From Planctomycetota bacterium (GTDB taxonomy: Bacteria; Planctomycetota; B15-G4; SIAN01), in contig JANNXA010000008.1 of NCBI GenBank assembly GCA_031409275.1, positions 1 through 11,341 of the forward strand: a stretch of 11,341 nt of DNA, written 5' to 3'. Positions within the stretch are counted from its first letter, which is position 1. Each line of letters opens with the position of its first letter. The notes under the pieces were generated by a model. That model did no database searches, was not told where the DNA came from, and saw only the letters and a program-made list of their open reading frames with translations. This document shows positions 1-11,341 of this stretch, one piece after another. A program made the position numbers and the translations under genes.

Positions 1-139
1 GCGAGTTGATCAAGGCGATCAACAACTTCATCACGATCAGCAACGAGAGCCCACGTCGCTTCATCTGGACGAAGAGCGCGGACGAGATCCTCGACAGCGT
101 TGCGGCATTTTGCCAACGAACTTCTACCTCAGGACACTA
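1..139 (+). mobile_element. IS630-family insertion sequence, right end (partial); inserted at a TA within CTAG inside the RT gene
   Basis: The transposase C-terminus runs into the terminal sequence ...ACTTCTACCTCAGGACAC-TAG. The stop codon overlaps the element end and the TA target (138-139, CTAG at 137-140), which is typical of IS630 elements. The left end lies outside the window. Confidence 0.85.
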
Positions 140-140
140 G
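3..140 (+). CDS. IS630-family transposase, C-terminal 45 aa (5'-partial)
   Basis: Not in the ORF track; translated by hand from position 3: ELIKAINNFITISNESPRRFIWTKSADEILDSVAAFCQRTSTSGH*. The N..P..F.WTK.ADEIL..(V/I)..FC.RT..SGH* tail is characteristic of IS630 DDE transposases. Confidence 0.88.
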   Translation, partial: ELIKAINNFITISNESPRRFIWTKSADEILDSVAAFCQRTSTSGH

Positions 141-2423
141 CCTTGCCCAGTGATCGACGGCCTCGCGCTCGCTCCGCCGCTCCGACTGCAAGCCGACGCA
201 CTCTGGGTCAAGCTCGGCAAGATCGCGGAGTGAGAGTGGGCGCGTCGGAAAGACGTATGGCAGCAACGACTCCTGCGATTCCTCGACGCCAGCTTCCTTC
301 CCCGCGGCCAACCGAGCCGTTCGAGTCCTCTTGAGGAAGCCTCGCATCGTCTCGATCTCGCCGTCTAGCTCGAAAGCACGTTCGAGTTCCTCGGTACTGG
401 CCTGAGACGAGCGCTGATCGGAAACACGACCATACTGCCGCTGAATCTCCTTCAGCGAAAACCGCGCAAGATCACCGAAGCCGAGCCGGCCAGCCATCGT
501 GGAAAGGCTCGTCGCATTGAGCTTGATCTCCTTCAGAAGGTCGTGAGCGTGCGCTGGAACATCAATCGGTTCCGCTCGGTGGTCTTTCGCACTCCAAGGC
601 CACGCTCGCAGGATGGCATCCTGAGCGAGAGAACGAAGTGCGACCATCGCGAGCCTCCAGGCTTTGTCAGCATCGCCCGCGAGTCGATAACCGTTGAGCT
701 TCACACCGCTCACCGCGCTTACTTGAGGCCCTTTTCTTGAGCGCGCTTGTGATGGCTTCCGCGTCACTGCACGTCGGAGTTTCTCCATCGCCGACTTCGC
801 ATGGCGGTAGAGCGCCGTGGCCTCGCTCCAATCACAAGACGCGACCGCAAGTCCCAGAAGACGTGGCAGCGAATCGAAGTAATCGAGCATTCGCTCCGGT
901 CGAAGCACATGGTCCTTGGCGAAGCGATAGAAAGCCCGGCGTCGCTTCGCCCACGTCGCAGGATCAAGATCCCGTTCGAGCGTTTCGACGTTGCGCAGTT
1001 GAATCGACCATCCGAGTCGACGAATCGAGGCACCGTCGGCGCGGCGCAGCGCGTCGGGCGTTTCGCGTGCGTCGCCGGTCGCCGTGAGTACGCCTGCAGC
1101 AGCGGAACGAATGAGATGCTCCGGATCGGGCATCAGGCGCCGCTCACTCGAAATCTCGGCGATCTGTCGTTCGATTTCCTCGACGAGGTCCGTCCCGCCG
1201 TCGCCGCCAAGAAAGAACACCCGGTGCTTCGATTCCTGTAGTCGGAGGTGCGTAGCGCCCTGATACGCGCCGAGATGAATGGTTCGTTCCCCATCGGATG
1301 CGCCGCTTAGGGTGCCGTCGGGCAATTGCCTGCGGATACGCTCCAGAAGTTCGCTGGACTCGCCGATGTCTCCCGCGTCGCGCAAGACCAGGAACACGTC
1401 GTCGACGTAGCGGCCGTAGTAGATCGGTGTGAGTGCAGTTGAGATCCGCTGATCCCATTCACGCAAGAGGACGTTCGCCATGACGCGGCAGGCTGTCACC
1501 CCAATCGGGATGCCGCCGATACGGCCGTCGCTCCCGTTAGGGACTCTTGTGAACTGCCCGCCGAGTCCGCTGATCTTGTCGACGCATCGACTCGACCACG
1601 CTTGAAGAAGTGCCAACACGATTGATGTGAACTCGGACTCAACTGCGGTGAGGCCAGTCCTGTCTTGCGGCGGTAGATCGTCGTCCCGCTCACCCAGCCC
1701 GATTGCGAGATGGAAGCGCGTGTCGGCGATGAAGCTGGGATCGATGCGGTGAAAGTAATCCTTGATGTCGAGTGTCAGTCCTATCACCTTCTCTTTCGCG
1801 GCGAGCGCTCGCCGCATCGCGTCGAGGCCGTCCTTTCTCCAGCGGCGGTACGCCAGGAAGTACGGAGCCATGCTGCCCGTCGCGCGCAAATGGTAGGGAC
1901 GGGTGTTGGGTGTGCCGTCATCGCCAAATCTGCGCAGTCGGCAACCGTAGGCGTGCTCGTCAAGGCAAGCATCGAAGCGATGACCGATTCGATTCACCCA
2001 AAGCGCCGAGAGGATATGGAAGTCGACCGGAAAGCGGCTGGCGACCCGGAATTCCGCTGTCAACCGTTGATGGCGCGATAGGTGTTCAAGTGCTCTCATC
2101 GGATCAGAGAAGTAGGCGTGCCCAGACGACGACTTACCTCGCTTTGCGTTCGCCTCCTCGAGCGAGATCTTTTTCGCGACGAGGACGGTTTTTCCCAGGA
2201 GCTTCACGTCCCCCCGAATCGACGTGCGATCGCTCTTCGATCGGAGCCGCTCAAGCAGGGCCCGGAGGTTCGATTCGAGCCGCACCTCGTACGCGGCAAA
2301 CCTGCGCGCCATGGGAATCGAGCGCTCAAAAAAGCAGTCGGCCTTGGCCTTCCGATACGCAAAGACCAAGTCGGACAACTGGAGTTCGCTCCAGGCGTTC
2401 AGCCTGCGCGTCTCGCTCATCAT
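129..2423 (-). CDS. Defence-associated reverse transcriptase (Abi/UG class, DRT1/UG1-like RT-nitrilase family), C-terminally truncated by IS630
   Basis: 764-aa ORF with RT motifs LTLDIKDYFHRI (~1752-1772), GIPIGVTACRVMANVLL and YYGRYVDDVFLV (YVDD at 1398-1409). The N-terminal AYRKAKADCFFE and the downstream ISSERRLMP, DALRRAD, LPRLLGLA and FPTRP segments match my recollection of RT-nitrilase proteins. The final codons and TGA derive from the IS end. RT identity is strong; the subfamily call is moderate. Confidence 0.88.
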   Translation of the reverse strand: MMSETRRLNAWSELQLSDLVFAYRKAKADCFFERSIPMARRFAAYEVRLESNLRALLERLRSKSDRTSIRGDVKLLGKTVLVAKKISLEEANAKRGKSSSGHAYFSDPMRALEHLSRHQRLTAEFRVASRFPVDFHILSALWVNRIGHRFDACLDEHAYGCRLRRFGDDGTPNTRPYHLRATGSMAPYFLAYRRWRKDGLDAMRRALAAKEKVIGLTLDIKDYFHRIDPSFIADTRFHLAIGLGERDDDLPPQDRTGLTAVESEFTSIVLALLQAWSSRCVDKISGLGGQFTRVPNGSDGRIGGIPIGVTACRVMANVLLREWDQRISTALTPIYYGRYVDDVFLVLRDAGDIGESSELLERIRRQLPDGTLSGASDGERTIHLGAYQGATHLRLQESKHRVFFLGGDGGTDLVEEIERQIAEISSERRLMPDPEHLIRSAAAGVLTATGDARETPDALRRADGASIRRLGWSIQLRNVETLERDLDPATWAKRRRAFYRFAKDHVLRPERMLDYFDSLPRLLGLAVASCDWSEATALYRHAKSAMEKLRRAVTRKPSQARSRKGPQVSAVSGVKLNGYRLAGDADKAWRLAMVALRSLAQDAILRAWPWSAKDHRAEPIDVPAHAHDLLKEIKLNATSLSTMAGRLGFGDLARFSLKEIQRQYGRVSDQRSSQASTEELERAFELDGEIETMRGFLKRTRTARLAAGKEAGVEESQESLLPYVFPTRPLSLRDLAELDPECVGLQSERRSEREAVDHWARLVS

Positions 2424-2450
2424 GCATGTCTCTCGAAAGCGCTGCGCTGA

Positions 2451-5400
2451 TCAACCAAAGAGGTTTCTCTGCGGCTTGGAGGTCGCTGCGTCTGTCGGAG
2501 TCACCTCCGTGACGCGGTGCGACAACTCCTCAGGTCTCTCGGACTTCATCGCAACCAGAAGTTCGTCGTAGCCCGACGCGCCCAGCAGGTTGCGAGCGTG
2601 AAGACGACAATCCCGGCTGGAATCATCAGCGGCTAGGGCGGTTTGAGCTTCGTTGAAGCCCGTACCGAAACGGGAGCGAACAGGTTGAGGATGCTTGGCG
2701 CGGTCGTCGTGGCCGAGGCCGTAGTCGGCGAGGCGGAGCGTCTCGGGAAGGAGCCAGCCTTCGCAGTCGTTCTGGGCGAAAAAGGCGGCGATGCCTTGCT
2801 CGCGTTCTCCGCCGCAGGCGGCGACCTTCTGTTCGAGGTCGTGGAAGGCGACGAGGGTCAAGACGGTATGGCGGAGTTCTGGGTCCTTGTTCTTGTCGAC
2901 GCGCCAGAATGATGTTGGCGTCAGCTTCTCAGTGATCGCCCGATCGGTGATTCGATCGATGGGGAGATCGCACTCGCGCATTAGGTCGCGCGCTTCAACC
3001 CACTTCAGTCGGTATGTGCTCATCACCAGCGCATCGATTGCGATTCGTTTCGCGGTGCGTGCGGCGGACTCCGGAACTTGCGCGAGTAGCGCGAGCATCT
3101 GGCGCGCGAGTAGTTCGATCTCAAACGAGTCTCGCTTTGGCACTGGGAGCACTTCGAGAAGAGAGATCGGGATCGACTCATCTACTTGAGTCCGCGCGAC
3201 GAAGTCGAGAACGAAGCTCTGAAGCAGCGTGAACGCGGCGACCGAACCAAGGACGTCCTCGGATCGACAGACTTCGATCGTGTAGGTCGTCGGAACTCCA
3301 GGGGGAACGATGCACGCCATGAGCGTCCGCGCGTCTGTGTTCCGTCCGATGCGGCGCACTCCGTGCGGAAATCGGCCGTGGGTTTTGCCAACTGCATCGT
3401 TGGTCTTGACGAAGAGTTCCGGCTGCTTGATCCAAGCGTCGAAGGCGCAGGTCTTCCCCTCCCAAACCGGAAGAAACCCGTGCTTGAGTAACCGTGCTCG
3501 AACAGCGAGTGAGCGAACATCGTCAGCCGCGGACAGTGCGCCCTGCGACTCGACTCGTGATCGCGACAGGAGTTTGTTGGAGTCGTTGGTCATGTCGAAT
3601 TCGCGGGCGTACTTGATGCCCCAGCCATCGGGGCCGTCGTCGCCGAGGAGGACCGAGTTCGAGTAGATCTTCTCGAGGATTTCGAGATCGCGCTTCGACT
3701 GGATCTCGAGGATGGCCTTCGAGCGCGGGCTGAAGCGGTCGACCTGCGCGCGCGTGTAGGGCGTCGCGAACTCCTCGGCCCGCTCCCAGTCCTCGAGTCG
3801 CCGCCGCATGAACGCGGTGCGGATCGCTTCGGTGCGGCCGCCCTTCTGCACCACGATCGGGTTGAACTTGAAGGAGCGGTGGATCTCGAAGATCGCGTCG
3901 CGGTTCTCGAAGCCGAAGAGCCACTCCCAGCGGCAACGATCGAGGAAGAGCGCGCGCAGGCCGCCGGTGCCGTGGTCGGAGTAGAGGCCGGAGGGGACGA
4001 TGAAGCCAAGACGGCCGTCGGCGCACAGCAGCGCGTGGGCCTGCTCGAGGAATAGCTTGTAGAGGTTGAGGTCGGCGGAGCCCTGATGGCGAAAGGAGTG
4101 CGCGGCGTCGGCGAAGCCGGCGGTATTCGCCCGCGCGCTGCGCCACCGCTCGTGGAGTCCGTCGTTCTGCTTGCCGCGTGCGATGCTGAACCGGTCGCCG
4201 TCCTCGATCGGCCCCTTCGGATCGCCGAACGGACTCGCGACCTGGCCCATGAAGTTCGACTGGGCGCGTAGGTCAGCGTTGTAGTCGAGCCAGGAGCGCT
4301 CGATGGCCGCGTCCGCGAAGAGTTCCGACTGGCGAGCAAGCGCTTCCTGCTTGCCGTACGAGCGGTAGAGCGGGTCGATGTTGGAGAAGAACTCCTTCGA
4401 GTTGGGCTTCGCGATGTCCCACGGCGGGTTGCCGAGGATTGCGTCGAATCCCGCTCCGCTCGTGCGAAAGACATCGGGGAACTCGAGTTCCCAATGGAAG
4501 AAGCGCTTTGCGGCGGCGACCCTCGCGGCAACCTCGCGCGTCTTCGCGTCAGGCGCGCCGAACTTGGAAGGCAGCGGGGCGCTCGCAAGCTCGTCGGCGG
4601 GCCAGTACCAACCGGCGCACCAGAGGTCCATCGCCTCCTTGAGCTTGCGGTAGCCCTCGCCGCCGAGGAACTCCTGGCGATAGAGGCGGCCACGCTCGGC
4701 GCTCTCGTTGACGGGCAGGTCGTGCAAGCGGGAAAGGGTCGTCCTTGCCGCAGCGAGGACGTTTTCCGGCGACGGACCGAGCGGACGAAAGACCCGCTGC
4801 TGCTTGATCAGCACGTCCGCGAGATCAGACCCAAGCTGCTTCGCGAACTCCTTGATCGCCTTGCCGCGGGCATCCTTCTGGAAGTGGACGCCGTTACCGT
4901 GGCCCTTGTCGCCTCCTTCGCGGTTCTTCCACGCCATCACGGGATAGTGCTGGAACTGGTCGAACCACGCGCCGACGAGCGAGTTGCCGCACTTGATCTT
5001 GTGATCGAGGAACGAGAACGGCAGCGACCGATCCATCGTCTCGATCCAGAGTGCGAGGCGGCAGAGCTCGACGGCAAGCGGATCGAGATCGACGCCATAG
5101 AGGCAACGCTCGACGACGTGGCGGCGCAGCAGCGCCTTCAAACGCGGCTCGAAGAGCGGGTCGTCGGGACGACAGGGCAGGAGTTCGCTCGCGAGCGACT
5201 CCGCGCCCGGATCGGCGGAACGCGGTCCCGCCGAGGGCGCAGCGAGCAGGCCGAGGAGTGCACGATCGCCGTCGCCCAGGATCCGCTGGTGGTGATGCAG
5301 TGAGACGTAGAGCGCGTCGGTCAGGAAGCGCAGCGCGGCTACCGGGAAGGTGCCCGAGCCGCAGCCGGGATCGCAGACCTTGAGTGCGAGGATCTCTTCG

Positions 5401-7348
5401 GGACGCCGTGGCACCCACGCCGCCGCAGGCGCGTCGAGGATCGGCTGGCCGTCGGCCCCCGCCGGCGGGGTGAAGGCGAGCGGACGCAACGTCCGTTGCA
5501 CCGTCGGGACGGCGAGTCCGGGGCGCGTATAGAACGTGCCAGATCCCTTTCGCGTGCCACCCCAGCGGACGAGGTAGCGCTCGCCGGGCAGCACGACGCG
5601 CGTCACCAGTTGGCGCGCCTTCCGGCCGATCCGCTCCTCTTGGACGAGTTCCTTCTCGGGCGTGGACTTGCCGCGCAGCTTCGGAACGAGACCCGCCGCG
5701 AGTACGGCAAGGCGCGCCCACTTCTCCGCGCGAGTTCGAGTTGTGCGGCGGTGATCGCCGTCGTCCACCACCTCGGGTTCGGTCGGCTCGGTTGGCTCGT
5801 CGGATTCGTCGCCAGCGGCCTCGTCGCCCGCTTCCGCGGTGGCGGTTGCTTCGGTCGCGACCTCTTGGTCGCCGCTCTCGGTGTCCTCGTCCTTGCTCGT
5901 GTCCTTCATCTTCTCGAGCAGGTTCTTGATCGCGTTGTCGTCCATCGCTTCGAGGCGCGACAGCGGCAACGCCGGCTGGTTGCCGACGGCGAGGAAGACG
6001 ACCGGCTCGTTCGGCGGCGCGGTCTTCAACTCGAAGTCGAGCAGTCCTTCGTAGAGGATTCCGATGTACTCGCTCGAAAGGTCGGTGAAATCGACCGGCG
6101 ACGGGACCGAGATGGCGCCGCGCCCCTGCCGGACCTTCACGCGCGTTCGCGTGAGCCGCTCGAGCATCCGATGGACGTCGGCGTCGGAGATTGGTGCGCG
6201 GGAGGCGTCGAAGCAGTCGTCCTCGAAGACTTGGAGCGCGCGCGTCGGGCCATCGCGCGAGCTGTCGCTGGCATCCGGAGGCGCAGGCGCGAAGAGATCA
6301 CCGCCGTAGGCCGGAACCGGCAGGGTTGGATGGTGCGAGCCGGTGTAGACGAGCCGGAAGAGGCCCAGCACGCGCGGCCACGCCGACGACGATTGCGCGA
6401 GCCGTCCTCCGCCCCGCGCCGCGATGCGCTCGAGTCCTTCGAGCAGGCCGGAGAGGCCGTAGCTCCCGTGGTAGAGGGCGTTCGTGCGCGGCAGGAGTTC
6501 GCGCGATTCTCCGAAGAGGATCACGACCATTCGCATCACGACGCGCACGGCGGCGCGGTAGACCTCGGACGGCGCCACGTCGGCGCAGCGCTCCGCGAGC
6601 GACGCGGCGTGCGATTGGATCAGGATCTCGACCGCCTCGCGCACACGCTCGCCGAGGATCGCGGAGAGTTCCGCCTGTCCCTTGCGGCTGTCCTGAATCG
6701 CCTGCAGCAGCGGCGAGGGCGCGTCCTTCGACTCCGGCACCCAGAGGCGCGGCGAGAGCAGCGTGCGCAGTGCCGCGACCTGCGGGGAGAGCGTCCCCTC
6801 CTCGAACCAGAGATCGAGGTCCCACTCGCACCAGGCGTCGAAGTCGAGACCGGCGTAGAGCAGCCGCCACTGCCGACCGTTGGTGAGGAGCGCGAGCTTC
6901 TCGTTTCCGGCGCGCAGCCACTGCAGGACCTGGCTCGTCTTCTTTCGGCCACGACCGATGCCGATGCGGCTGCCGGCACGATCGTCCGTGTCGAGGAAGA
7001 CCGGCAGGACGCCACCTTGCAGGCCGCGCCAGAGGAGGCGCGGCTTGACCGACTCGCCGACGAGGTCGCTGCGGCTCCAGTCGGTGCCGACCTGCGGGCC
7101 GCGCTGCCAGTTCCCTAGCTCGGAGGAGAAGCCGCAGATCGACTGCAGCACGAAGGCGACGAAGTCAGAGACGTCGTTGCGGTCGGCTCGATCGGCAAGC
7201 AACGCGCTGGCGCGGCGGCGCAGGGCATCCTCGTACCAAGGAGCAGCGGATCGGGGACGTGTTCACCAATGCGGCGCAGACGCGCGGGATCGAGGAGGAG
7301 GCCGCCGTGGCGGAGGCGGTCCCACCCGAAGAGTTCGGGGGCGCTCAC
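2451..7348 (-). CDS. drmMI: Large N6-adenine DNA methyltransferase, DISARM DrmMI / type IIG (Eco57I-like) architecture; frameshifted near 7244 (about 1632 aa if repaired; main open frame 2451..7262)
   Basis: RKGSGTFYTRP, SAM-binding motif I VCDPGCGSGTF (5352-5372), LYGVDLDP, catalytic motif IV GFDAILGNPPW (NPPW at 4419-4430), DLNLYKLFLE, and N-terminal LLTNGRQWRLLY. A GTG at 7348 overlaps the helicase TGA (GTGA). Frame A (MSAPELFGWDRLRHGGLLLD...EHVPDPL) joins frame B (PWYEDALRRRASALLAD...) if one base is added. The gene symbol is inferred from its position after a drmD-like gene. Confidence 0.85.
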
Positions 7349-10300
7349 GACGCGCCCCCCGGGAGGCGGATCTCGACGGTGACCGGGAAGACGTGGGCTT
7401 CGCCGGCGAGCGCGTAGCGGCGTGGCAGGACCTGCTCGAGGATGCGGCGGCGCTCCTGGTCGAGTTGCGCGCGGACTTCCTCGTAGTGGCGATGCCGGCG
7501 CGCGACCTCCTCCCCCTTCTCCTCGATCGAGCGATCGATCTCGTCGAGCTTTTCGACGCCCGAGAAGAGCAGCCCCTGCTGGCGCTCGGCCTTCAGTCGG
7601 GCGATCTCGCGCTCAAGCTTCTGGAGCGTCGTCTCGGCGATGAGGCTCGACACTTCGGCTTGCCGGCTCTGGTAGCGCTCCTGCTCCTGCTTGCGCGCGG
7701 CGGTCTGCTGAACCTCGAGCGTCGTGCGCAGCGTCGTGGTGAGTTCACGCGCGTAGGACTTGAGGTGCGTGCGCACGGCCGGCTCGACCTCGTCGAAGAG
7801 GAGACTTGCACGCTTCGTGTCGTCCGGGTCGCGGCGTGGCAGGCCGCCTCGCCAGGTGATCGCCGGCACGTGAGCCAGCGGTGCCTGCAAGTCGCAGCCA
7901 CGGATCGGGAGCGCGAGCGTCCGCACCCAGTGGTGGAACGACTCGCGCAGATCGTTGACCGCCAACTCCTCGACCGTCAGCAGCAGGAGCGCGTCGGCTC
8001 CGGCCGGCACGCCGCCACGGCGCACGGTCCAGCGCGAGACGGAGTCGCCCGTGCCCGGAAAGCGGCGGCGGGTCAACGCTGAGAGCGCCTTTTGCATCAT
8101 CGGATGCGAGAGGTGCATCAACAGGACGTCAGGACGCGGGCAGAAGACGGTCCGCTCGCCAACCTTCTGCAGGAAGGGATCCGGAGTGAAGGCGACGCGC
8201 GCGACGGGGCCGCGTTCGCCTCGACGAATCGGGCGGCGCAGGGATTCGTCGATGACGTCGATCCAGCCCGGCAGGTCGGGGTGAACGACCTTGCAAGTCT
8301 TCGCCTCGGCCGAGCAATCGAGTTGCGGCCGGCCCGCTCGGATCGCCATCGCCGTCTCGAGGGTGTCGCGCACGGCGACCGGGTCGAGGTCGGTCTCGGC
8401 AGCAAGTTGCTTCAGGTCGTCCTCGGCCTTCGATCCCTCCGTGAGCGTCCCGATCGTCGCGTCGGCCTCGATCGAAGAGCGGCCACGGACAGCGACGATG
8501 CGGAGATCGAGTTCCTTCTGCACCTCGGGGAGCGCCACGCCTTCGACGAGCCGGCGATGGGCCGCTTCGTCGAAGAGTTCGTTCACGGAGCCGAGGTCCT
8601 CGCGGATCTCGTCGGTCTTGCGCAAGACGTGGGCGAGGAACTTCAGATCCTGGTCATCGTCGCTCGCGAAGTGATGGATGGTCACGTCGCGCGGCTGGCC
8701 AAGGCGGTCGACGCGGCCATTGCGCTGCTCGAGCTTCGAGGGGTTCCACGGGCAGTCGAAGTGGAGCAGGTAGCGGGCAGTGCGCTGGAGGTTCAATCCT
8801 TCGGACGCAGCGTCGGTGGCGACCAGGACGCGAACGCGGGCCGACGAATCGTTGAAGGCGTTCTTGATCAGGTCGCGCTCGACCTCGTCCATGCCACCGA
8901 AGAGATTGAGGAAGCGTTCGGGCTCGGGGTGCTTCTCGCGAAGTCGGCGCGTGAGGTAGTCGAGCGTCGTCTTGTACTCGGTGAAGACGACGAGGCGCTC
9001 CTGGCGATCGTCGCCGAGCCACTTGCCTGGCTCACGGAGCCGTTCTTCGATGAGGCGGAGCAGCGCCTCGAAGCGCGCGTCGGATCTCGGATCCAGGGCG
9101 ACCACGTCGTTGCGCTTGGGATCGAAGCCAAGGCGCACGAGCGCGCCATCGAGGGCGGCGATCTCGGTGGTGAGTTCGCCGACCATGGTCTTGAGCCATG
9201 CGCCAACGACGGAGGAGGCAGTCGCCTCGCGCTGCTGCGCTTCGCGATCGTCGCCGGTCTCCTGCGCGACGGTTCGCGCCGCAGCCGCGACATCGCCGTC
9301 ACTTGCGAGCTCACCTTCGGCCAGGCCCTGCTTGGCGCGTCGCCACGACTCCGCGAAGGCGGTCGGGCAACTGAGCAGCCGCTTGCCGAGGATTTCGACC
9401 GTGAAGCTGCCGGAGCGGCGGCGGCCGTGATCGCCGCTCGCCACAATGGAGCGGACCTTGGCACGGAAGAGGTCGAAGGCGGTGGAGAGCGCCGCCTCAT
9501 CGGAAGAGCGCTGGAGCAGCAGCGCGCGCGGCGGCAGGCGAGTGCAGAACGGCGGCGGATTCGTGCGAGCGTTGATCTCGCGCTTGAGCCGGCGCAGGAC
9601 GATCTGCTGGACGCGCTCGCGCTCCTTCGGCTTGAGCTCGTCGGTCTGGCAGAAGCGGACCGGATCGAGGATCTCAAGGAGGCCGCTGAAGCAGCGCGTA
9701 TGGCCGTTGTGCGGCGTCGCGCTCAGGAAGAGGCGGTGCTCGAACTGCGGCGCGATCTGGCGGAGCATCTGGCAGAGATCGCTGTCGTCGCCGAACGCCG
9801 ACGGCATGAGGTTGTGGCACTCATCGACGATCAGCAGGTCCCACGGCAGGTTTGGCGAGGCGTCCGCTGAACCGTCCGGCGGTCGGCACGCCGAACGGAA
9901 CTGCTCGAGGACGTCGCTCTGCTTCAGGTAATGGTAGGAGGCGATGATCCGGCTGGACGCGCGCCACGGGTTGGCGTCCATCCCGAGGCGCTTGCGTAGC
10001 GCGTAAGTCTCGTCGCGATCGACGAGGTCGAACGGCAACGAGAACTTGTCCCGCATCTCGTCGCGCCACTGCAGGCGCAGTGACGCCGGCGTCAGGATCA
10101 GCACCCGCTGGATCCGGCGGCGAAGCAGCAGCTCGCTCAGGATCAGCCCGGCTTCGATCGTCTTGCCGAGGCCGACGTCATCCGCGAGCAGCAGGTTCAC
10201 CCGTGGCATCCGCAGCGCCTTCAGCAGCGGCACCAACTGGAAGTCGGCGACTTGGACCGCCCCATGAAAGGGGCTCGAGATCGGCGGTCGCGTCCAGGTC

Positions 10301-10614
10301 CCGGTTCCGCGCGGATCGAGCCACGGCGAGGTCGCCGTCCACCGCGCCGAGCGGGTGAGCGCGTCGAAGTCCTCCGTGGGCATCGGGTCGCTCGAGCGGA
10401 CCTGCGGTAGCTCGGTCGGCTCCTGAAGACCCGGCCGGACCTCAAGCTCCCAGAGGAGACGCTCCTCCTGCGGAAGATGGTCGTCCTTGTACTCGACGTG
10501 GACGAGGTGCATCCGACCCCCGTCGCCGTCGAACGGCTCGACGGCGGCGATCACGCCGCGCCGGTTGCGGACGGTGGCGAACATGCCGACGCGGGGCTGG
10601 GTCAACTGGCTCAT
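7345..10614 (-). CDS. drmD: SNF2-family (SF2) helicase/ATPase, DISARM DrmD-like, 1089 aa
   Basis: FQLVPLLKALRMPRVNLLLADDVGLGKTIEAG (Q motif and Walker A), LLIVDECH (9814-9825), LSATPHNG, VFTEYKTT, ATDAASEGLNLQ, PWNPSKLEQRNGRVDRLGQ, and a C-terminal coiled-coil-like region. The start is placed at ATG 10614 (MSQLTQPRVGMFATVRNRRG) because the 50 extra upstream codons look non-coding. It sits directly upstream of a large adenine MTase, as in class 1 DISARM. Confidence 0.9.
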   Translation of the reverse strand: MSQLTQPRVGMFATVRNRRGVIAAVEPFDGDGGRMHLVHVEYKDDHLPQEERLLWELEVRPGLQEPTELPQVRSSDPMPTEDFDALTRSARWTATSPWLDPRGTGTWTRPPISSPFHGAVQVADFQLVPLLKALRMPRVNLLLADDVGLGKTIEAGLILSELLLRRRIQRVLILTPASLRLQWRDEMRDKFSLPFDLVDRDETYALRKRLGMDANPWRASSRIIASYHYLKQSDVLEQFRSACRPPDGSADASPNLPWDLLIVDECHNLMPSAFGDDSDLCQMLRQIAPQFEHRLFLSATPHNGHTRCFSGLLEILDPVRFCQTDELKPKERERVQQIVLRRLKREINARTNPPPFCTRLPPRALLLQRSSDEAALSTAFDLFRAKVRSIVASGDHGRRRSGSFTVEILGKRLLSCPTAFAESWRRAKQGLAEGELASDGDVAAAARTVAQETGDDREAQQREATASSVVGAWLKTMVGELTTEIAALDGALVRLGFDPKRNDVVALDPRSDARFEALLRLIEERLREPGKWLGDDRQERLVVFTEYKTTLDYLTRRLREKHPEPERFLNLFGGMDEVERDLIKNAFNDSSARVRVLVATDAASEGLNLQRTARYLLHFDCPWNPSKLEQRNGRVDRLGQPRDVTIHHFASDDDQDLKFLAHVLRKTDEIREDLGSVNELFDEAAHRRLVEGVALPEVQKELDLRIVAVRGRSSIEADATIGTLTEGSKAEDDLKQLAAETDLDPVAVRDTLETAMAIRAGRPQLDCSAEAKTCKVVHPDLPGWIDVIDESLRRPIRRGERGPVARVAFTPDPFLQKVGERTVFCPRPDVLLMHLSHPMMQKALSALTRRRFPGTGDSVSRWTVRRGGVPAGADALLLLTVEELAVNDLRESFHHWVRTLALPIRGCDLQAPLAHVPAITWRGGLPRRDPDDTKRASLLFDEVEPAVRTHLKSYARELTTTLRTTLEVQQTAARKQEQERYQSRQAEVSSLIAETTLQKLEREIARLKAERQQGLLFSGVEKLDEIDRSIEEKGEEVARRHRHYEEVRAQLDQERRRILEQVLPRRYALAGEAHVFPVTVEIRLPGGAS

Positions 10615-10696
10615 GGTTACTGGTCGTGCCCGAGCGAGAGATCGATCTCCGATCTCGAGCAGTAAACCAGAGCCGGCTCCCCCCCGGAACGGACGA

Positions 10697-10725
10697 GCCG
10701 CCGTCCTGCACCCAGGACCGGCGGC
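10697..10725. repeat. GC-rich inverted repeat / stem-loop upstream of the helicase
   Basis: GCCGCC-GTCCTG [CACC] CAGGAC-C-GGCGGC forms a 12-bp stem with one bulge and a 4-nt loop. There is no adjacent poly-T tract; function unknown. Confidence 0.5.
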
Positions 10726-11062
10726 GATCCCCAGTGTCCCCGCACGTCGTTCAGACCCCGACAAGCCTGACGGACAGCGACGAACAGTCGCCGCGGATCG
10801 CGCCTCCTTGGAGGACCTCGAGTCGCGGGCGGCGCGGTCATTGCGGAGTCCTGGTGCACGGGCATTGCACGCTCCGGACTGTCTTGAGCCGGTCCAGGCT
10901 CGACCGACCTTCCCCCCGGCGGATCGCCGACGCTCACCTCGGGACGCGGCAGGGCAAGCGTACCCAATTCAAGAACAGCTTCCGCTAGAGCAGGCGGCAG
11001 CGTGGTCGCAGTCGAAACGCGGCGGCCCGTGCTCGTTCTCAACGCTCCCCGCCCCTTGTCGT

Positions 11063-11341
11063 CTGACCACCGTCCACAAGTCCCCCCGCTGGGCACGGCG
11101 CCCGGCGATCGGTAGATCCTGAGGGATGGAGATCGCTGGAGCAGCGTTGTGGCCGGCCGACGTGGCGTGGATCGAGGCCGCCGGGGCTTCTCCGGGGATG
11201 ACGCGCTCGGAGCTGGCGCGCCGACTCTGCGAGCGTCTGTCGTTGCGTGACGAGCGCGGTCGGTTGCGTGAGGTCGCGGTGCGGATCGACCTTGGGCGCC
11301 AGGCGGGAGCGGGTCGGCTGCGGCTGCCCGCGGTGGCGGCC
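11063..11341 (+). mobile_element. IS4-family (IS50/Tn5-like) insertion sequence, left end (partial)
   Basis: CTGACCACCGTCCACAAGT (11063-11081) matches the IS50 outside end CTGACTCTTATACACAAGT at 13/19 positions, including the terminal CTGAC and CACAAGT. A DUF4338-like ORF starts 45 nt further in. Confidence 0.65.
11126..11341 (+). CDS. DUF4338/DruA-like domain protein N-terminus, probably a DUF4338-fused IS4-family transposase (3'-partial)
   Basis: Not in the ORF track; translated by hand: MEIAGAALWPADVAWIEAAGASPGMTRSELARRLCERLSLRDERGRLREVAVRIDLGRQAGAGRLRLPAVAA..., open to the window edge. The (S/T)R..L.R.LCE.L..R...GRL.....R..L......G...LP pattern resembles the leader of DUF4338 proteins. 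Confidence 0.65.
   Translation, partial: MEIAGAALWPADVAWIEAAGASPGMTRSELARRLCERLSLRDERGRLREVAVRIDLGRQAGAGRLRLPAVAA

Follow-up and report, generated by a model that had tools for sequence, protein, structure and literature searches.

A UG5-large reverse transcriptase-nitrilase gene in the armB-armC slot of a planctomycete ARMADA operon

The stretch analysed here (the window) is the entire 11,341-nt contig JANNXA010000008.1 (C8) of a Planctomycetota bacterium assembly, GCA_031409275.1, and both of its ends are multi-copy elements. Its minus strand carries a helicase gene, a methyltransferase gene and the 5' part of a reverse transcriptase (RT) gene. The RT was found to be a UG5-large RT-nitrilase, the kind known as defence reverse transcriptase (DRT) 11, and the operon to be of the ARMADA family. 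On balance, we favour the reading that the RT-nitrilase sits in a variable slot between armB and armC of the ARMADA operon, is likely co-transcribed with it and likely acts as an autonomous abortive back-up, being a long-resident but optional member of the operon. The embedding of defence genes in other operons is already known, and the ARMADA-resident RT lineage is a new combination of known parts.

The split RT-nitrilase and its operon

The RT had been discussed alongside DRT1/UG1 from the sequence alone, but its profile scores place it in UG5-large, with 503 bits (E 4.6e-151) for the PADLOC profile RT_UG5-nitrilase against 26 bits for Drt1a. Membership in DRT1/UG1, for which a best match to UG1 profiles and a length of 1,200-1,300 aa would be expected, was rejected on these scores and on the lengths of the full-length homologues (1,040-1,130 aa). 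DRT1 (UG1, PDB 9yfd) is likewise a class 3 RT-nitrilase and gave a weak nitrilase match (P0001-9yfd, E 1.6e-5), but our RT is the shorter protein; the priming serine of DRT1 is described as not conserved in other class 3 DRTs in the available text of that study (PMC13275509). Over residues 14-532 the RT has 35% identity to the S. meliloti RMO17 DRT11 protein, and it shares with UG5-large/DRT11 a YVDD RT fused to a C-terminal nitrilase, a length of ~1,095 aa and the lack of a transmembrane partner gene (PMC13436386; PMC9226505). DRT11 is presented in the accessible parts of the same sources as a stand-alone gene among toxin-antitoxin modules, whereas the RTs closest to ours form a separate clade in ARMADA operons, and the copy in the source genome is split by an insertion sequence (IS).

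This IS630-like element cuts the RT after residue 762, extending its frame by two codons and a stop, while the nitrilase half of the gene was found at the end of contig C4. Four full-length homologues align by tblastn with C8 up to approximately residue 756 and resume at the end of C4. Both the C8 and the C4 junction carry the inverted repeat of the element together with TA, the reading frame is continuous across the site, and the flank depths of the two contigs match (15.5/18.4 and 14.9/18.2). We infer that C8 and C4 are joined here, with no read spanning the element. The nitrilase is fused to the RT in the homologues and is separated from it by the IS in the source genome; residues E97, K158, C208 and E210 are invariant in 15 alignment rows, and the catalytic Glu, Lys and Cys are present. 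One end of the element stops the RT half and the other provides an in-frame ATG, giving a 360-aa nitrilase open reading frame (ORF; C4 45453-46535, or L002:15454-16536). The split RT and nitrilase ORFs resemble the two-gene layout of UG5-small.

Gene calls and profiles agree with the earlier description of three co-oriented minus-strand genes with almost no spacing (Table 1). The product of armA scored 657.7 bits with the NCBIfam DrmD profile (cut-off 610), but it shares 58-71% identity with the ArmA proteins of five other ARMADA loci and only 38-39% with true DrmD. The 4-nt overlap between helicase and methyltransferase was also borne out, as the GTG start of armB at 7348 overlaps the armA stop. 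The armB product matched PADLOC REase_MTase_IIG at 1232 bits and DrmMI at 412 bits, and Pfam Eco57I. The gene is not a single open frame: residues 1-35 lie in one frame (7333-7244) and the remainder in another, with a frameshift at approximately 7244/7241 that was seen against three homologues. The site is unchanged in the contigs of runs X1, X2 and X4 of one study, X1 and X2 being possible source data, and armB is intact in L008, G199 and G883. Programmed frameshifting was considered, but no slippery run was seen by eye at the site. Given the IS within the RT gene and the frameshift in armB, the source-genome copy of the system is probably dead, with both layers inactive. Towards the 3' end of armB, identity to relatives falls from 53-73% to gaps and 37-54%, and the G+C content at third codon positions (GC3) is 0.70 against 0.87 in the armB core.

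The gap of 27 nt between armB and the RT was confirmed from the gene coordinates, and in six relatives with armB directly before the RT the two genes are a few nucleotides apart or overlap. The reported absence of an evident promoter or terminator agrees with a consensus scan, itself weak at 66% GC, which returned no promoter-like site anywhere in the window, where 0.6 were expected, and no terminator on the minus strand around the armB-RT gap. The spacing suggests that the RT is likely co-transcribed with the ARMADA operon.

Table 1. Features of the window and of the joined end of contig C4
Feature	Position	Strand	Remarks
RT, 5' part	129..2423	-	762 of ~1,095 codons of a UG5-large RT-nitrilase, DRT11 kind
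RT catalytic YVDD	1398..1409	-	residues 339-342; invariant in 20/20 alignment rows
Nitrilase half of RT	C4 46529-45453		end of contig C4; UG5-nitrilase profile, 353 bits, E 1.4e-105
armC	C4 45449-39519		1,976 aa; begins 3 nt after the nitrilase half
armB-RT spacer	2424..2450	-	27 nt; armB stop ends at 2451, RT ATG at 2423
armB	7348-2451	-	PglX/type IIG-like adenine methyltransferase, ~1,630 codons; PADLOC, Pfam
ArmB motif I	5372-5352		
ArmB NPPW	4430-4419		
armB variable 3' region	2451..3539	-	likely target-recognition region; identity drop, GC3
armA	10614-7345	-	SNF2/RapA-like helicase (DrmD/BrxHII family), 1,089 aa; profiles
ArmA Walker A	10173-10159		intact
ArmA DECH	9825-9814		intact
IS630-like element, right end	1..139	+	start of C15 identical
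Second multi-copy insertion element, end	11063..11341	+	matches ends of C33, C2, C31 and C51
ORF	10617-11096		no Pfam match; region without homologue in the genome or mapped loci

The gene following the nitrilase half on C4 completes the order armA-armB-RT-armC. Its product contains DEAD, Helicase_C and MZB (DUF1998) domains in one chain and is a fused YprA helicase; the best profile was DruE with 344 bits, against 49 for DrmA, and no match to the DrmA or DrmB families was found at E 1e-10. ARMADA is defined by an SNF2 helicase, a PglX-like methyltransferase and a fused YprA helicase (10.1101/2025.09.15.676423), and our locus has the same NPPW-bearing set: a BrxHII/RapA-like SNF2 helicase, an adjacent PglX-like methyltransferase and a fused YprA/DUF1998 helicase nearer to DruE than to DrmA. 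It differs from the published systems in the RT-nitrilase between armB and armC and in the lack of the RelE-GajB ArmD after armC, a type II hallmark that is absent here and in the other mapped loci. No Vsr match was found in ArmC by Pfam, and a blastn search of E. coli genomes with armC was likewise without result. An RT homologue, P0047 (KF724_11675, MBX3356343.1), lies three accessions from KF724_11660 (MBX3356340.1), which Table S1 of the ARMADA study lists as a type I helicase (10.1101/2025.09.15.676423); by this accession adjacency, our ArmC may belong to the type I clade. The ArmC C-terminus was also seen to be a peptidase S24-like (LexA-type) domain (residues 1845-1968; L002:9520-9940), of which the available text of the ARMADA paper makes no mention.

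The operon had been described as DISARM class 1-like, a label that is wrong here because the downstream gene encodes a fused YprA helicase without DrmA or DrmB match. A DrmD-like helicase and a DrmMI-like methyltransferase are common to both kinds of operon, whereas separate drmA, drmB and drmC genes are not found at the source locus. The true DISARM of this genome is a drmD-drmMI-drmA-drmB cluster on C55 (L003, C55 59495-72168), which has no RT and holds the only DrmB match of the genome; no drmC-sized ORF was seen in its map, which was filtered by GC3. True DrmD proteins scored 1,265-1,413 bits with the DrmD profile, against 658 for ArmA here.

Recurrence and history of the pairing

The RT search covered 71 genome loci and the best 80 of 360 metagenome loci, and nine close relatives were found. 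In seven of the nine, armB and/or armC lies beside the RT, with armB directly upstream in six. The clearest case is L008, where the gaps within armA-armB-RT-armC are 0, 3 and 58 nt and no other gene is present. The order armB-RT-cargo-armC was observed in four loci (L005, L075, L076 and L077), armB-RT followed by the contig end in L004, and another gene, the RT, darTG and armC in L079. The RT of P0047, 61% identical to that of L008, is a further, indirect case of an ARMADA neighbourhood. The pairing recurs in relatives and is therefore not the one-off juxtaposition that the sequence-only reading had named as evidence against itself. A conserved 184-aa protein without Pfam match, a candidate embedded defence gene, was also observed between RT and armC in two of these loci (L075:4712-5266 and L076:6658-7212).

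In trees made with FastTree or quick IQ-TREE, one branch separates the close RTs from the rest, with a Shimodaira-Hasegawa-like approximate likelihood ratio (SH-aLRT) of 94 when L008 is included (38 rows; below the 95 mark of the tool) and a FastTree support of 93 without it. Loci with fewer than 400 of 560 residues covered are omitted from the RT tree, among them L088, which was placed in the close set by identity. Outside the close set (142 other loci), armB was found upstream of the RT in none of the 129 loci with at least 1 kb upstream, two matches being DISARM drmMI, and armC downstream in none of the 91 with at least 1 kb downstream; in L111 the RT follows an armC-like gene. ARMADA genes are absent from the neighbourhood of most UG5 relatives, and also from that of two UG5 RTs of other clades (G1712 and G1646) in a 400-genome sample of the phylum. 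The G1646 RT is itself in halves (C1 44265-46043 and 3942136-3942564), which lie 0.5 Mb apart on the circle amid repeated mobile elements. Neither a close RT (best 31%) nor ArmC was found in viral contigs, and 80 viral loci were left out of the analysis.

The distances among the RTs follow those among the ArmC proteins. For ArmC residues 1-300 the Spearman correlation was 0.92 over seven loci (2 of 5,040 permutations), falling to 0.82 without L008 (4/720) and to 0.71 without L008 and L005 (5/120), and it ranged over 0.71-0.88 across the sets with dropped rows; RT identities among these loci are 40-81%. A correlation of 0.89 was found with the ArmB core (2/24, four loci). Part of the correlation could stem from related hosts or from recombination among close loci. 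No domain beyond those of stand-alone UG5 was found in the close-clade RTs. The ARMADA block itself is patchy, because ArmC was not found in any of four genomes of the same genus (completeness in the family ranges over 70-94%).

Searches with ArmC gave thirteen mapped loci that had not been found through the RT, 11 weaker plasmid matches being left out. The interval between armB and armC was readable in nine of the thirteen, and none of the nine has the RT: eight hold other cargo and one is empty. The cargo comprises, by Pfam, genes of the AAA/DUF3696, RNA ligase, macrodomain, OLD, AbiEii, DUF932 and HTH-IrrE kinds; the cargo of G408, G092 and G883 was assessed by eye. In ten of the ArmC-found genomes, a search with the RT profile gave no close RT. 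On the ArmC tree the RT-less G199, G883 and G408 lie among RT-bearing loci, and ArmC of G199 and G883 is 73-75% identical to that of the source genome. The suggestion of a distinct system of SNF2 helicase, methyltransferase and RT(-nitrilase) is unsupported because related operons lack the RT in all nine assessable cases. Among the side findings, a plasmid of Synechocystis (L166, CP101713.1) was found to carry a fragmented armA-armB-armC whose slot is occupied by a PIN toxin-antitoxin pair.

UG5 RTs were also observed in other modification operons. In Methylomonas, Methylotuvimicrobium and one metagenome contig (L047, L053 and L140), a UG5 RT-nitrilase gene follows drmMI at a distance of 15 nt within a complete DISARM class 1 operon, and the three RTs form one clade, so that the proposed DISARM with an RT after drmMI, although not found at the source locus, does exist in these Methylococcaceae-type loci. 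In L053, drmMI is interrupted by an IS66 transposase. Other UG5 RTs lie after brxL (L064) or before a pglW-like kinase (L035). Of 90 loci outside the close clade, 40 have hsdM or hsdS on the strand of the RT in the 8 kb upstream of it (24 of 62 clusters at 90% identity and 7 of 26 at 70%), with none on the other strand and 2 of 62 downstream, in searches whose restriction-modification (R-M) seeds were taken from the RT loci themselves. Of the 40 loci, 38 also match HsdS or HsdR, and the RT lies directly after hsdS in L007, L041, L061, L065, L066 and L074. In a small Shedu control, type I R-M was upstream in 1 of 11 loci (0 of 7 with 8 kb upstream).

Interpretation of the pairing

ARMADA is reported to block phage without cell death, with catalysis of ArmA, ArmB and ArmC required in the type II system tested (10.1101/2025.09.15.676423), whereas UG5-large/DRT11 is reported to protect alone, to require only its RT and nitrilase sites, and to show abortive-infection behaviour (PMC13436386). 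According to the available text of PMC13275509, the DNA made by class 3 DRTs, among them DRT5L, is protein-primed and template-free; in DRT1 this DNA stabilises the nitrilase in a dormant filament. ARMADA might then provide a non-abortive first layer and the co-expressed, autonomous RT-nitrilase an abortive second layer, in which phages that pass the methylation/helicase layer and replicate would trip the RT-nitrilase independently. Shared expression and co-transfer may keep the RT in the slot; it would have travelled with the ARMADA lineage over the long term, yet could be lost or replaced.

A co-oriented gene in the slot of a modification operon is likewise seen in the embedded defence genes of Hma, BREX, DISARM and type I R-M systems (10.1101/2024.01.29.577857), in PrrC within EcoprrI and in BrxU within BREX, but in ARMADA a single RT lineage is found in the slot repeatedly, and its divergence follows that of the host operon. 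The embedding study does not deal with ARMADA, and its main text has one embedded DRT (type III, a single instance), although its supplements may list UG5 (10.1101/2024.01.29.577857). Neither a reverse transcriptase, a DRT nor a nitrilase is mentioned in the main text of the ARMADA paper (10.1101/2025.09.15.676423), nor DISARM, BREX or the word 'embedded' in the accessible part of the UG/Abi survey (PMC9226505). No published report of an RT in ARMADA was found in a literature searched largely without subscription papers.

Several observations weigh against a long-resident, autonomous RT. No ARMADA gene is visible in two of the nine close loci, on contigs of 3.3-3.5 kb, where a SIR2-like gene (L078, a short contig) or an OLD-TOPRIM ATPase and UvrD (L088) lie upstream, and the genome of L004 gave no ArmC match. 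The co-divergence was measured over seven loci only; the correlation was weaker with ArmC residues 600-1000 (0.73, 11/120) and absent with the ArmB C-terminus (0.31, 1122/5040). The GC3 of the RT is lower than that of ArmC in all six loci measured, as in recently arrived cargo. Finally, a long co-divergence and a fixed first slot after the methyltransferase exceed what shared expression needs and would also be expected from functional coupling.

Such coupling is the content of the main alternative, which we regard as rather unlikely, in which the RT-nitrilase is wired to ARMADA, either held quiet by or reading the methyltransferase-helicase complex as a PrrC-like guard, or triggered by single-stranded DNA made by the ARMADA helicases. 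The co-divergence of RT and ArmC speaks for it, as does the position of the RT first after a methyltransferase or specificity gene in three unrelated systems (armB in six loci, drmMI in three and hsdS in six). The excess of hsdM/hsdS upstream on the same strand over the other strand and over the Shedu control points the same way, but that control is small and the R-M seeds were drawn from RT loci. The shared orientation is not specific evidence because 96.7% of embedded genes have the strand of their host operon in general (10.1101/2024.01.29.577857). Activation of DRT1, which needs the phage helicase Dda although Dda is not sufficient (PMC13275509), would suit a helicase-linked trigger, but DRT11 protects by itself (PMC13436386) and the close clade has no RT domain specific to it. 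A specific binding partner is also made less likely by the four unrelated partners next to which this one RT family is found. The earlier idea of a PrrC-like guard fits the gene context, which does not in itself show a guard role.

Recombination could instead mimic co-divergence without selection for pairing, if the slot were a hot spot by the variable armB 3' end where RT alleles hop between ARMADA loci, mostly those of close relatives, via conserved flanks. This is quite unlikely, in our view, even though the slot cargo is diverse, the RT changes between present and absent four times on the ArmC tree, a result indistinguishable from shuffles (84/500), low GC3 is common to the RT, the armB 3' region and other cargo, and the RT is uncorrelated with the ArmB C-terminus. 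The RT also tracks the ArmB core and ArmC 600-1000, both distant from the slot; RTs that are just 40-57% identical hold the same position, and the other-clade UG5 RTs from the phylum sample (G1712 and G1646) lie outside ARMADA. An obligate four-gene system with the RT as a required subunit is largely refuted and very improbable: L008 consists of armA-armB-RT-armC and nothing else, but the nine RT-less loci include G199 and G883, and the profile search of ten ArmC-found genomes recovered no close RT. A DISARM class 1 operon with the RT after drmMI is scarcely credible at the source locus unless the C8-C4 join is wrong; the helicase exceeds the DrmD cut-off and the layout is real in the three Methylococcaceae-type loci, but both the DrmD score and the fused YprA helicase in place of drmA/drmB/drmC contradict it, the sole DrmB match being on C55.

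A broader proposal, which we put forward with considerable doubt, is that UG5-large RT-nitrilases are a PrrC-like back-up for methylation-based immunity and that the close clade is an ARMADA-dedicated branch that has co-evolved with ARMADA, in which a dormant nitrilase would be released by a block of ARMADA or by helicase-exposed phage single-stranded DNA, turning a non-abortive response into an abortive one. If there is a functional reason for the usual position of these RTs after a methyltransferase or specificity gene, direct trigger candidates would be anti-restriction proteins or helicase products. If the RT is autonomous, as we favour, it is a further case of embedded defence. For the ARMADA family, the findings add a slot for cargo and, in L008, a model locus with all four genes intact.

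Flanking elements and neighbouring genes

The IS630-like element is approximately 1,160 bp long and multi-copy and sits at a TA within the RT gene, with its terminal inverted repeat at 115-139 of the window. Its opposite end was found at the ends of C4, C18 and C26, and in the assembled run contigs a 1,160-nt contig of the element has approximately 10-12 times the flank depth. The family name given earlier fits the TA target, although no library match confirmed it. No IS-free contig was found at either RT junction among the run contigs listed, in which rare variants are dropped, so that a rare intact allele could have escaped notice. The second insertion element, of approximately 2.35 kb, ends about 450 nt upstream of armA, and its 2,351-nt contig has approximately eight times the flank depth; no Pfam match was found in its part of the window (11063-11341). 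An Rfam scan of the window returned no RNA family, and no HsdR was found in the source genome.

Downstream of armC lie a PD-(D/E)XK gene and then a UvrD-nuclease gene, an AddB-like and AddA-like pair that follows armC in the source genome only (L002:3573-9340). Further along C4 (28001-33508), an opposite-strand cluster resembles by eye a phospholipase D and helicase defence module, and a similar cluster occurs before armA in G775.

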